A stretch of DNA of 64,000 bases from an uncultured bacterium (GTDB taxonomy: Bacteria > Verrucomicrobiota > Kiritimatiellia > RFP12 > UBA1067), in the NCBI GenBank assembly GCA_902764415.1, contig CACWVU010000017.1:65133-129132 (forward strand), given 5' to 3'. This document shows, piece after piece, positions 50,401 to 53,400 of this stretch (positions are counted from its first letter, which is position 1; the number at the start of each line of letters is the position of its first letter). Position numbers: made by a program.

Positions 50401-53400
50401 TGTATTATACCAAAAAATGAGGCTGCGCGGCGGCGCGGAGAGCCACTCCCCACTTCGACGCTTGGTAAGACTCCGGGAGGAGTCAGTCAGAACCGGGCAT
50501 GGACAGTCACTTGTCGCGCTTGAGCGCGTTGTCGCGGCGACAGAGCATCTGGAGGTTCTCGGGGACGGTCTTGCCGCCCTTCGACCAAGGCACGATGTGG
50601 TCGCCTTCCATCTCCTCGTACTCGAAGTGGCCGCCGCAGACGGGGCAGACGCCATTCTGCGCCTCGTACGCCGCGCGCTTCTCCTCGTCGTCGAACTGCC
50701 GGAGGTTCAGCTTCTCCTTCCTCGCGCCGTCGGAGAGGAGGTACTCGTAAATGCCCCTGTTGTTCTGGACCTCCTTGTCGGCCATCAGCGCGGAGACCCC
50801 GGCCTCCAGCTCCTTCGGGTTGTACGACCTCGCCGAGTACTCGCTGTAGAGCCTTCCCCACTCCAGCCCCTTCATCTCGCGCCGGTACTTCGTAAAGAGC
50901 GTCTCGATCCAGTTTATGACCTTCTGGAAGTGAAGCCACAGCTCCGTCGCCTCGCCGTCGCCCTGGTGGATCGCCATGTACTCCTCGATCGCCCTGTCCT
51001 TCGACGAGTTGATCATCCACTCTATCGCCGTCTCGAGGTACTCCTGCCTGTCCGCGCTTCCGTTCAGGTACGGCGCACCGATCTTCTGCGCGACACAGCC
51101 GGACTTGGAGAAGTAGCGCTTCGCGTCCGCGACCCACGGCCCGGAGTAGACCGCGTTCCGCATCTCCTGCGGCGTGAGCTTGAGCCCGGCGATGTTGATC
51201 ACCTTGAACCAGTCGATCTTCTCCGACTGCTCGCCCTCGCAGAAGTAGACCATCAGCTCGTAGTCGAGGAACTTCCGCTGGACGTCCTCCGGCTGACGGT
51301 GGAAGTACTTCGCCGCCAGGTCGAGCTCTCCCCACGCGAAGTCGCCGTTCGCGTACTGGCAGAGCGAGATCGTCCGCTGCTGCCCGTCCATCACCTCGAA
51401 GGTGCCGTCGGGGTTCTTCACCCAGTACATGACGTTGAGCGGGAAGCCCTTCATCACCGTGGAGATGACGGCGTTGCGCTCCTTCTCCTTGTAGACGAAC
51501 TCGCGCTGGTAGGCGGGGCGGATGTCGAGGACGCCGCCGCAGCCGCGCACGCCGCTCTCCGCGTCGTCGACGTAGCCCTCGACAAGGTCGCGTATCTTGA
51601 TTCGATGGAGCTCGATCTTCATGGCGATTCAGCCTTTCTCTTTTTGACAGGATTTACAGGATTCACAGGATTGTGTTGCTTTCGCTACTTGGAGTTCTGG
51701 AATTTTGGAGTTCGCGAGGCATGAAAGCTCCATATCTCCAAGACTCCGAAACTCCCAGTTGCGAAAGCAATTCTATTTGCGCCCTATGCATTGGAAATTA
51801 TCCACGTCGGCGGATAAGGATACGCCCATAAGTCCGCTTTCCACCAATGACACTACACCCACCTCGGTCTTCTGGATGGATATGGTATCCCACTTCTCTC
51901 AACGCCTCTTTCGGCGCACTAGCCCGAGTATTGCCAGACGCCTGCCATAATATTTCAAACTGCTCTGGGCAATACTTGTCCATGAATGTTATCGGCACAC
52001 CCATTATACCCTCATAATCGTATGGGATGTCAGCAGATTTTGAAACCTCAATAGCATCGTAGTTGTCGTATTTCGGGAACTCCTCTGGCGTATACTTCTT
52101 GTATAGTGGAAGCTTTTCATGTCGTTTCGCGATGTCCATATTCGTAAACCACATTACACCAGAAACTCTTATCATACCCTCACGATGATCTCCAGCCGTC
52201 GCTACATCTTTGTATCTCGACTTGAAATGCGCGGCATTGCCTCTAAACCCAAAACCAAGCCAAATCTTGTTTTCCTTGAAAAGCGGAAATATCTCTTTGT
52301 AGGTGATGGCATTCTGATTCCCGATGATAAGGAACTTCTTGCCGTACTTCACGAGCTGAGCGACATACTCGCGGAAGAGGGAGAACGGCGGATTGGTGAC
52401 GACAATGTCTGCTTCCTTCAGGATCTCGATGCATTCCTCCGAGCGAAAGTCGCCGTCGCCCTTCAGCACGCGGACGCCCACCTCGTCGTCGTCAAGAACC
52501 ATGTTGCCGTTCTTGTCGCCTTCGTAGACCTGGCAGATCGCCCGCTCACAGTCGCCCTGCGAGAAGAGGTCGACGTCCTGGCTCTTGTAGCAGGTCGCTA
52601 TCAGCCGCTTCAGACCCAGCTTCTCGAAATTCTCGACAAAGTACTTGAAGAACTCGCTCTGCCGCGGATCATCGCAGTTGCAGAGGACGACCTTGCCCTT
52701 GAAATGCGCCTTGTAGTGCCGCAGCTCGTTCTCGATGTCAACGCGCTGGGTGTAGAACTCGTCCTTCTTCGCCCGCTTGGCCGCCGTAAGTGCCGCGTTG
52801 TCGCCCATTTCGTGCCTCAGTGTCCACCGCACCATCAAGTGAGATTATGGTACGGATGAAATTTCAGTCCTGCGCATATCCGTCGCAAACACCGTATTTG
52901 TGCATAAAAAGGGCGCATTTCCATTCATGCACTCTTGGGTAGCCCTACCACAGGCTAGTTTGGAATACATGAAGAGGAAATGCGCCCAGATGGGCGCATC
53001 TCTGCTTACATGCCGTTCCAAACTTGAAATAGTGGTAGTATTTCCCAAGAACGACGTGTAGCGTTGATGCTACATTGAAGAACGTCTGGCGGGGCGTTCG
53101 CGGCGGCCGCGCATGGCGCGGGGAGGCCTGACTACTTGCCCGTTTTCCAGACTATCACCCCGCGTCGCGTCTTCCGCCTCGCGAGATGAGTGAATTATAC
53201 CAAAAATCCCCACCGTGCGGGGCGAGGATTCACATTTCCCACAACTCAAACCCTCAATCAAAGAAGGTGGATGCTGAAGGCTAATGAAGATAGACCGCTG
53301 TGCCGGCACTACAGAGGACGGCGAGCGCGCGCTCGTGCGCGGGATCAATGCCGCGGACGGCGAGGCGGGCGAGGTTCCAGCGGCGGTTGAATAGCCAGCC

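Follow-up and report, generated by a model that had tools for sequence, protein, structure and literature searches.

Exchangeable cassettes in an EcoRI-family adenine methylase beside a near-constant DUF262–HNH nuclease suggest a restriction–modification pair in which the methylase may hold the specificity

The locus considered here lies in a stretch of 64,000 nucleotides (nt) of contig CACWVU010000017.1 (positions 65,133–129,132 of the forward strand; assembly GCA_902764415.1) from an uncultured bacterium of the Kiritimatiellia (lineage RFP12; UBA1067). This whole stretch is the window referred to below. Within it, at 50507–52838, a methylase gene of the EcoRI family is followed by a gene in which a DUF262 domain is joined to an HNH nuclease, and two questions arise: (i) do the two genes form a single restriction–modification (R-M) system, or are they independent defence genes that happen to be stacked, and (ii) if they work together, which of the two proteins sets the sequence that is recognized? 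A first-pass annotation had left both options of the first question standing. Our comparative analysis indicates that the pair is a coupled module, and shows that two segments of the methylase are replaced wholesale beside nucleases that hardly differ. For the second question, we lean towards a reading in which the specificity would reside in the methylase only and the nuclease would be a specificity-neutral effector. Locus, genome and contig numbers below (L, G and C) are our own handles. The coding regions are as follows.

51798..52838, minus strand: methylase open reading frame (ORF), with an in-frame TTG start at 52838, 346 amino acids (aa)
51798..52808, minus strand: methylase from its likely true start, ATG 52808 (MGDN...), where homologues begin, 336 aa
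50507..51622, minus strand: nuclease, with a DUF262 (ParB/GmrS-like, nucleoside triphosphate (NTP)-binding) domain, a helical middle and an HNH domain, 371 aa

Both ORFs are intact and co-oriented, 175 nt apart, as the first-pass annotation had described them. The methylase matches the Pfam profile EcoRI_methylase (PF13651) over positions 2–344 of 345 (E=3e-140, 467.7 bits against a cut-off of 26.4) and the PADLOC model MTase_II PDLC03297 over its full length (E=6e-121). The three blocks on which the first-pass annotation had based the family are all located in the translated ORF, as KKDEFYTQ, LCNCDDP and VTNPPF, and the family assignment itself is borne out by an identity of 52% to authentic M.EcoRI over aa 14–297. 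The reference is the enzyme of E. coli plasmid NZ_OW967970.1, on which the R.EcoRI gene precedes that of M.EcoRI. Four blocks (DEFYTQ, CNCDDP, GDGDFRS and TNPPF) are invariant in 31 methylase homologues. With a full-length profile match, the catalytic NPPF and the conserved blocks, the protein belongs to the EcoRI_methylase family of N6-adenine DNA methyltransferases. The protein database entry for it is a product of 243 aa only (P0233, 100% identical over 70% of the query), which makes it probable that the public gene call has been truncated or interrupted by a contig end.

Coupling of the two genes can be judged from how often, and in what order, they occur together elsewhere. Relatives of the nuclease were found in 395 genomes in a scan with one genome per species, from which 80 loci were kept. 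An EcoRI-family methylase lies directly upstream on the same strand in 70 of these 80 loci, often with only a few nucleotides between the methylase (M) stop codon and the nuclease (R) start codon, or with the two overlapping. The hosts include Kiritimatiellia, Clostridia, Saccharibacteria, Treponema, Bacteroidota, Dehalococcoidia, a gammaproteobacterium and an archaeon, among others, and the pair is also carried by plasmids of cultured Mammaliicoccus, Aeromonas, Gordonia, Variovorax, Enterococcus and lactobacilli. On those plasmids the Prokaryotic Genome Annotation Pipeline (PGAP) names the products 'DUF262 domain-containing protein' and 'adenine-specific methyltransferase EcoRI family protein'. 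Phage records with the pair are rare (5 of 50,697).

Within the order to which the window's genome belongs (151 genomes), the methylase is present in 53 genomes and the nuclease in 40. A nuclease follows 48 of the 62 substantial methylase matches, at a gap of −6 to 839 nt; two of the remaining methylases are in the reverse order and most of the others abut contig ends. The two reversed loci, with the nuclease before the methylase, are G141:C9:42783-45090 and G045:C52:2238-4477. This genome alone has three copies of the pair: the window copy on C17, C15:12545-14862 and C54:848-3319, with methylases 38–47% and nucleases 39–50% identical to one another. Several copies per genome are frequent in the order, and the number of nuclease matches reaches eight; G045 (same order, 4.2 Mb; L091–L098) has eight nuclease and eight methylase matches. 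Co-occurrence, which the first-pass annotation had named as the point on which the coupled option could fail, is thus frequent both in the 80-locus set and at the level of the order. Because the gene order is the same in different phyla, on plasmids and in each of the three paralogues of this genome, we read methylase and nuclease as a coupled M-then-R module, not as a chance stacking, and it is this option of the first-pass annotation that comparison upholds.

Eight Kiritimatiellia loci seemed to hold solitary nucleases. When five of their genomes were searched, every one was found to carry family methylases (2–5 each), and at L008 and L015 the nuclease is preceded on the same strand, at a distance of 4.9 or 7.6 kb, by a methylase, with unrelated genes between. 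We had considered such 'orphan' nucleases as evidence that the nuclease is harmless without the methylase; this argument was rejected, as the genomes carry family methylases and the other cases lie at contig ends. A separate observation comes from an Oscillospiraceae locus (L025:2937-3989), where the methylase has an in-frame stop just before the second of its two variable cassettes and the adjoining nuclease is intact.

Alignment of the methylases reveals three variable regions (VRs) set in a conserved scaffold.

52470..52589, minus strand: VR0, between the CNCDDP block and GDGDFRS, lineage-specific, tracks the nuclease lineage
52158..52253, minus strand: VR1, ~aa 186–217, window type A (FGFRGNAAHF...EGMIRVSGVM), entropy 2.0–2.4 bits
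51840..51947, minus strand: VR2, ~aa 288–323, window type i, WQASGNTRASAPKEALREVGYHIHPEDRGG, entropy 2.5–3.1 bits, many indels

The scaffold flanks VR1 with NKIWLG and W[FY]TN, and VR2 with PEQFE and a C-terminal Y.RI.IR. Between these flanks the sequence falls into discrete, mutually unalignable types of differing length (~20 to >90 aa), of which there are ~6–8 for VR1 and at least 13 for VR2. The VR1/VR2 combinations are A/i in the window, A/v in L021, D/i in L010, D/v in L006 and L007, D/vi in L012 and L019, D/vii in L018 and L020, D/iv in L022, C/iv in L004, B/ii in L001 and B/iii in L003. Type D of VR1 is combined with at least six VR2 types. Conversely, VR2 type viii occurs with VR1 types A (L023), D (L026), E (L069) and also F, type ix with A (L037) and D (L050), and type xi with D (L047) and A (L055). 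VR1 and VR2 types assort independently. Copies within one genome also differ in their cassette combinations, with three of three distinct in this genome, four of four in G149 and six of the seven recovered methylases in G045. The VR2 of M.EcoRI itself (KFRKGVDEKDLSINGKCPYFRI) is of type viii, common to L023, L026 and L069, all of which are paired with a DUF262–HNH nuclease, and its VR1 is a type of its own (F). Both window types differ from those of M.EcoRI, and a GAATTC specificity is therefore not expected here.

The exchange is most clearly seen where the surrounding DNA has barely diverged. The window pair shares its position with sister loci beside purA.

49116..50453: purA, downstream of the nuclease

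Three of these loci (L002, L003 and L004) are 96–98% identical to the window DNA through purA and the nuclease gene (blastn). Along the comparison with L004, identity is 97.7% up to 51833 and 79% over 51951–52155, no similarity is detected over 52155–52333, and identity returns to 94% over 52333–53230. The alignment is thus interrupted at 51833–51951, at VR2, and at 52155–52333, at VR1; the DNA breakpoints coincide with the cassette edges. Among the window, L001 and L004, which share the purA locus, the nucleases differ at 5–7 scattered residues (98–99% identical) and the cassettes are 19–24% (VR1) and 20–29% (VR2) identical; the window's own VR1 is 21–24% identical to those of L001 and L004. 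A second case is found in Ruminococcus, where L043 compared with L044 and L054 has a nuclease identity of 98.6%, an identical VR1 (100%) and a VR2 at 35%; the same swap pattern occurs in Saccharibacteria (L036, L047 and L055). The L003 nuclease row was excluded from the pairwise statistics. Where nucleases are at least 95% identical (24 locus pairs), identity is 91% in the methylase scaffold and 97% in VR0, and the VR1 type is equal in 75% of the pairs, the VR2 type in 25% only. Spearman correlations with nuclease identity are 0.62 for VR0, 0.13 for VR1 and 0.20 for VR2. No region as variable as VR1 or VR2 was found in the nuclease alignment by column entropy.

These comparisons also bear on the base composition of the locus. 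GC content is 0.47–0.55 in the methylase, 0.62 in the nuclease and ~0.67 in the backbone, in agreement with the earlier remark that the methylase lies below the backbone. The accompanying idea of a recent islet does not hold, since sister genomes have the same purA-adjoining locus at 96–98% DNA identity. Judged from the alignments, the low GC of the methylase stems from recombination that replaced its C-terminal half, VR1 and VR2 included, rather than from an acquisition of the whole pair; the stretch would be GC-poor because that half was imported.

If the nuclease is the constant partner, its own architecture and the constraint on it become relevant. Pfam places GmrSD_N/DUF262 (PF03235) at aa 34–159 (E=4e-19) and HNH (PF01844) at aa 326–370 (E=3e-13), both in the one 371-aa ORF, which confirms the fusion that had been noted; the C-terminus also matches PF14279, and no match to DUF1524, the C-terminal His-Me nuclease domain of GmrSD, was found in the Pfam search. 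The PADLOC model REase_II PDLC03418 is matched over 1–370 of 372 (E=4e-138). Two motifs stand out.

51374..51388, minus strand: DGQQR (aa 79–83), ParB-fold nucleotide-binding box, invariant in 35 homologues
50513..50647, minus strand: HNH finger (aa 326–370; PF01844), with C326, C329, D341-H342, N356, C361 and N365, all invariant

The HNH residues D341, H342, N356 and N365 are likewise invariant in the 35 nuclease homologues. The fourth zinc ligand of the finger (aa 361–364, 50525–50536) is polymorphic, being Asp in the window and Cys in most relatives: the motif reads CRRDN in the window, L001–L008, L010 and L015–L017, and CRRCN or CADCN in L009, L011–L014 and L018. An AlphaFold2 (AF2) model of the nuclease has a mean predicted local distance difference test (pLDDT) score of 87.4, and Foldseek ranks BrxU first for it, with CDP/CTP-bound ParB, Noc, the Gme HNH nickase, McrA and SspE among the other closest folds; the scores are weak, as expected of a multi-domain protein. 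A sequence search of the PDB with the nuclease matched the HNH finger and nothing else. The ratio of nonsynonymous to synonymous substitution rates (dN/dS) is 0.06–0.12 at dS 0.09–1.15, and 0.06–0.09 among the purA-linked sister loci; the nuclease is under strong purifying selection. The low ratio and the invariance of DGQQR and the HNH residues predict a functional enzyme, and the ParB-type nucleotide box suggests an NTP-gated switch, in which case the nuclease would use NTP.

Target-recognition domains (TRDs) of DNA methyltransferases, such as those in HsdS of type I and Mod of type III systems, have a known signature, the swapping of entire cassettes that cannot be aligned with one another. 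If VR1 and VR2 set specificity in the same way, a nuclease with a fixed recognition sequence of its own could not survive the swaps, and the near-constancy of the nuclease suggests that it has no sequence specificity of its own. We therefore consider a model with the following elements. A promoter and structured leader would drive an operon that encodes the N6-methyladenine (m6A) methyltransferase and then the ParB-like-NTPase/HNH nuclease; the two independently exchangeable cassettes would hold the target specificity, and the marks set by the methylase would keep the nuclease off host DNA. Two routes to this outcome can be envisaged. By the first (a), the methylase would recruit or license the nuclease at unmethylated sites, with the nucleotide-bound ParB-fold domain as a switch or sliding element and the HNH domain as the cutter, according to the logic of type III or 'single-TRD, split type IIG-like' systems. 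By the second (b), the nuclease would read m6A as a self signal in any sequence context, as SspE does with phosphorothioate.

Both routes have published antecedents. A single TRD that serves an entire R-M system, with the endonuclease on a separate peptide, has been described (PMC4752239, section 10), and the DUF262 protein SspE senses phosphorothioate as a self mark (PMC12707154). The fold of the nuclease N-domain, close to NTP-switch proteins (ParB and Noc) on the one hand and to modification-sensing nucleases (BrxU and SspE) on the other, also speaks for the model, in which methylation would block the nuclease.

Several points weigh against placing specificity in the methylase only. That VR1 and VR2 would set sequence specificity is an argument by analogy with the TRD shuffling of type I and type III systems. 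M.EcoRI is an autonomous monomer that works with an unrelated restriction endonuclease (REase), so that an M-R complex is not required in this family. PADLOC places the nuclease among type II REases, a label that may rest on a characterized sequence-specific member; in the literature searched we found no named enzyme, recognition site or paper behind PDLC03418 or PDLC03297. Entries in the tables of Blow et al. that read 'GAATTC, not detected' were set aside, as no link between them and this family could be made. Structure offers little help with the cassettes: the PDB sequence search with the methylase returned no match, and so no solved structure for the M.EcoRI family, and the AF2 model (pLDDT 76.8) is least confident in the VRs. 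Foldseek with this model retrieved only generic Rossmann methyltransferases, and the VRs could not be placed relative to DNA.

These points lead to the first of three other explanations, a classical type IIP or IIS system in which the DUF262–HNH protein would recognize a defined sequence alone, the methylase would protect that sequence and VR1 and VR2 would be surface decoration or iso-specific variants. The full-length matches to the REase_II and MTase_II models, the membership of M.EcoRI, a textbook type IIP methylase, in the family and an operon layout typical of type II are what such a system would display. Yet dissimilar cassettes replace one another beside nucleases that are 98–99% identical and strongly constrained, with no comparably variable region in the nuclease alignment, and, were they iso-specific, the three to eight diverged copies of a genome would merely duplicate one another. 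Nor does any site betray itself by its rarity. Palindrome avoidance in this genome was generic (CTAG, GGCC and ATCGAT), with no clear single candidate for a recognition site; pooled over 620 kb of host loci no palindrome stands out; and GAATTC is not avoided in this genome (observed/expected 1.06). On balance, we consider the classical arrangement unlikely.

Less probable still is a GmrSD-like type IV nuclease that travels with an unrelated, specificity-variable methylase which has no control over it. Modification-dependent enzymes are the best-known carriers of DUF262, the nearest folds include BrxU and SspE, and the M-R spacer tolerates insertions of 0.2–7.6 kb; independence would, moreover, trivially explain the invariance of the nuclease. 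Against it stand the strictness with which M precedes R in different phyla, on plasmids and among paralogues, the stop codon of M often overlapping the start codon of R, as well as the seemingly solitary nucleases described above, all five searched genomes of which carry 2–5 family methylases, two with an upstream methylase on the same strand. Furthermore, VR0 and the methylase scaffold co-diverge with the nuclease, whose C-terminus is a canonical HNH domain and not the DUF1524 domain of GmrSD. A decaying remnant, in which an inactive nuclease would let the methylase swap cassettes at no cost in this lineage, could be argued from the Asp at the fourth zinc-ligand position in the window's sub-lineage and from the repeat element between M and R, but is very improbable given a dN/dS that stays low to a dS of 1.15, the intact ORFs of all relatives examined, the retention of all catalytic and NTP-box residues, and the same swaps in Ruminococcus and Saccharibacteria, where M stop and R start are only 7–9 nt apart.

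How, then, does the pair compare with known systems? With the EcoRI system (GAATTC) it shares the methylase family, the catalytic blocks and, through type viii, a VR2 cassette that is found beside DUF262–HNH nucleases as well as in M.EcoRI. The partner differs, being ParB-like and HNH here and the PD-(D/E)XK enzyme R.EcoRI there, as does the gene order, M-then-R here and R-then-M on the EcoRI plasmid. R.EcoRI adjoins M.EcoRI only in enterobacterial plasmids. Type III systems (EcoP15I) offer a functional parallel, in that their methylase exchanges TRDs beside a constant restriction subunit that is both NTPase and nuclease; the same pattern is seen here, if the VRs are taken as TRDs. The components are nonetheless different: the window methylase, a small protein of the EcoRI family, is neither a beta-class Mod nor of MmeI type, the NTPase has a ParB/Srx fold rather than that of a superfamily 2 (SF2) helicase, and the nuclease is HNH rather than PD-(D/E)XK. 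A parallel is also offered by the 'type IIG-like, single-TRD' split systems (Blow et al. 2016, PMC4752239), which rely on one recognition module throughout, as the window pair would.

From the type IV side, GmrSD, BrxU and SspE have in common with the nuclease an N-terminal DUF262 domain with DGQQR and supply its nearest folds (7p9k and 7drr), and the example of SspE shows that a DUF262 nuclease can operate together with a DNA-modification module. These proteins are longer (580–770 aa, compared with ~370 aa) and end in DUF1524, not in a zinc-finger HNH domain (PF01844), and no sspABCD or dndA-E phosphorothioate genes adjoin the window nuclease. The obligate neighbouring m6A methylase of the window-type nuclease is contrary to the 'no cognate methylase' expected of GmrSD type IV enzymes. 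By the PADLOC type II catalogue (MTase_II plus REase_II in adjacent genes) the pair is a type II system, with both models matched end to end and the genes 175 nt apart. However, the comparative anatomy points to a mechanism unlike that label, and the 'type II-like' of the first-pass annotation probably understates the difference, as the sequence data oppose a nuclease with a matched specificity of its own.

The remaining features concern the periphery of the operon.

52870..53232, minus strand: promoter and ~330-nt structured 5′ leader before the methylase, with an extended −10 element TGGTATAAT at ~53192–53202
51623..51797, minus strand: M-R spacer, 175 nt, with a hairpin and three 9-nt 'aatcctgtN' units

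The neighbours of the nuclease are the methylase, purA and an unannotated ORF of 220 aa. Copies of the leader that are 82–84% identical at the DNA level occur upstream of the C15 M-R pair (C15:12313-12676) and at C42:9568-9895 (L105:269-596). The C15 leader is this similar although the C15 proteins are only 47–50% identical to those of the window, and the C42 leader fronts an unrelated operon that encodes a UvrD-helicase/PD-(D/E)XK protein, an N6_N4 methylase and a protein of 1073 aa. The RNAalifold consensus of nine leaders has 87 pairs, with 94.9% of the cells paired, compared with 35–51% when the partners are slid; pairs changed on both sides number 22, compared with 3–8 in the slid controls, and two helices have 5 of 7 pairs co-varying. 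No Rfam match was found for the leader. It looks like a common regulatory leader of defence operons in this lineage. An invariant 'CATGTAAG' (ATG then TAA) is located at the base of the longest leader hairpin (~52935–52945, minus strand) in nine of nine leaders (alignment columns 283–292), and may be a start–stop mini-ORF or just conserved helix sequence.

The M-R spacer is predicted to fold with a minimum free energy of −58.6 kcal/mol. Its array of 9-mers recurs at ~12 sites in the genome, including ~2524–2552 of the window, and BLAST found no further copies of the spacer hairpin. The element is present in L004 (gap of 180 nt) and L002 (164) and absent from L001 (40) and L003 (41); relative to these sister loci, the spacer is read as an inserted element. 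Longer insertions are found in L008 (G151:C5), L015 (G154:C24) and G153:C31, where 3–8 kb of unrelated genes lie in the M-R spacer with the flanking genes intact; the insert in L008 includes an ORF for a reprolysin-like peptidase. This comparison marks the M-R junction as an insertion hot spot, and the nuclease probably has transcription of its own in addition.

The combination is not new as such, contrary to one option of the first-pass annotation: a REase_II model that covers the nuclease family in full length exists in PADLOC, and PGAP labels both genes as a matter of routine. In the literature searched we found no paper that names or characterizes the nuclease, and a survey of the ParB-CTPase fold from December 2025 lists ParB-HNH merely as a 'novel fusion' (PMC12704722). 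The pair is catalogued but apparently unstudied as a family, and as an instance it is ordinary. What deserves attention is that the family of M.EcoRI, itself a textbook type II methylase, is nearly always paired with a ParB-like/HNH nuclease in the sampled genomes. We put forward, tentatively and with less conviction than the placement of specificity in the methylase, that the EcoRI-methylase family may be mainly the recognition subunit of a distinct and widespread R-M class, in which a small monomeric methylase with two independently swappable recognition modules (VR1 and VR2) would guide or license a nuclease of generic kind, with a ParB-fold NTP switch and an HNH domain; on this view the EcoRI system of the textbooks would be an offshoot, its methylase captured by an unrelated PD-(D/E)XK enzyme.

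If the nuclease does take its specificity from the methylase, the pair would constitute a compact R-M class of only two genes, whose target can be changed by swapping a cassette. This would give the ParB nucleotide switch a new job and offer a practical route to programmable methylase/nuclease pairs. Defence annotation and REBASE-style motif prediction would also be affected, in that the transfer of 'GAATTC' by homology would be wrong. For the organisms that carry such pairs, a lineage could change its target by exchanging a cassette and leave the nuclease untouched.

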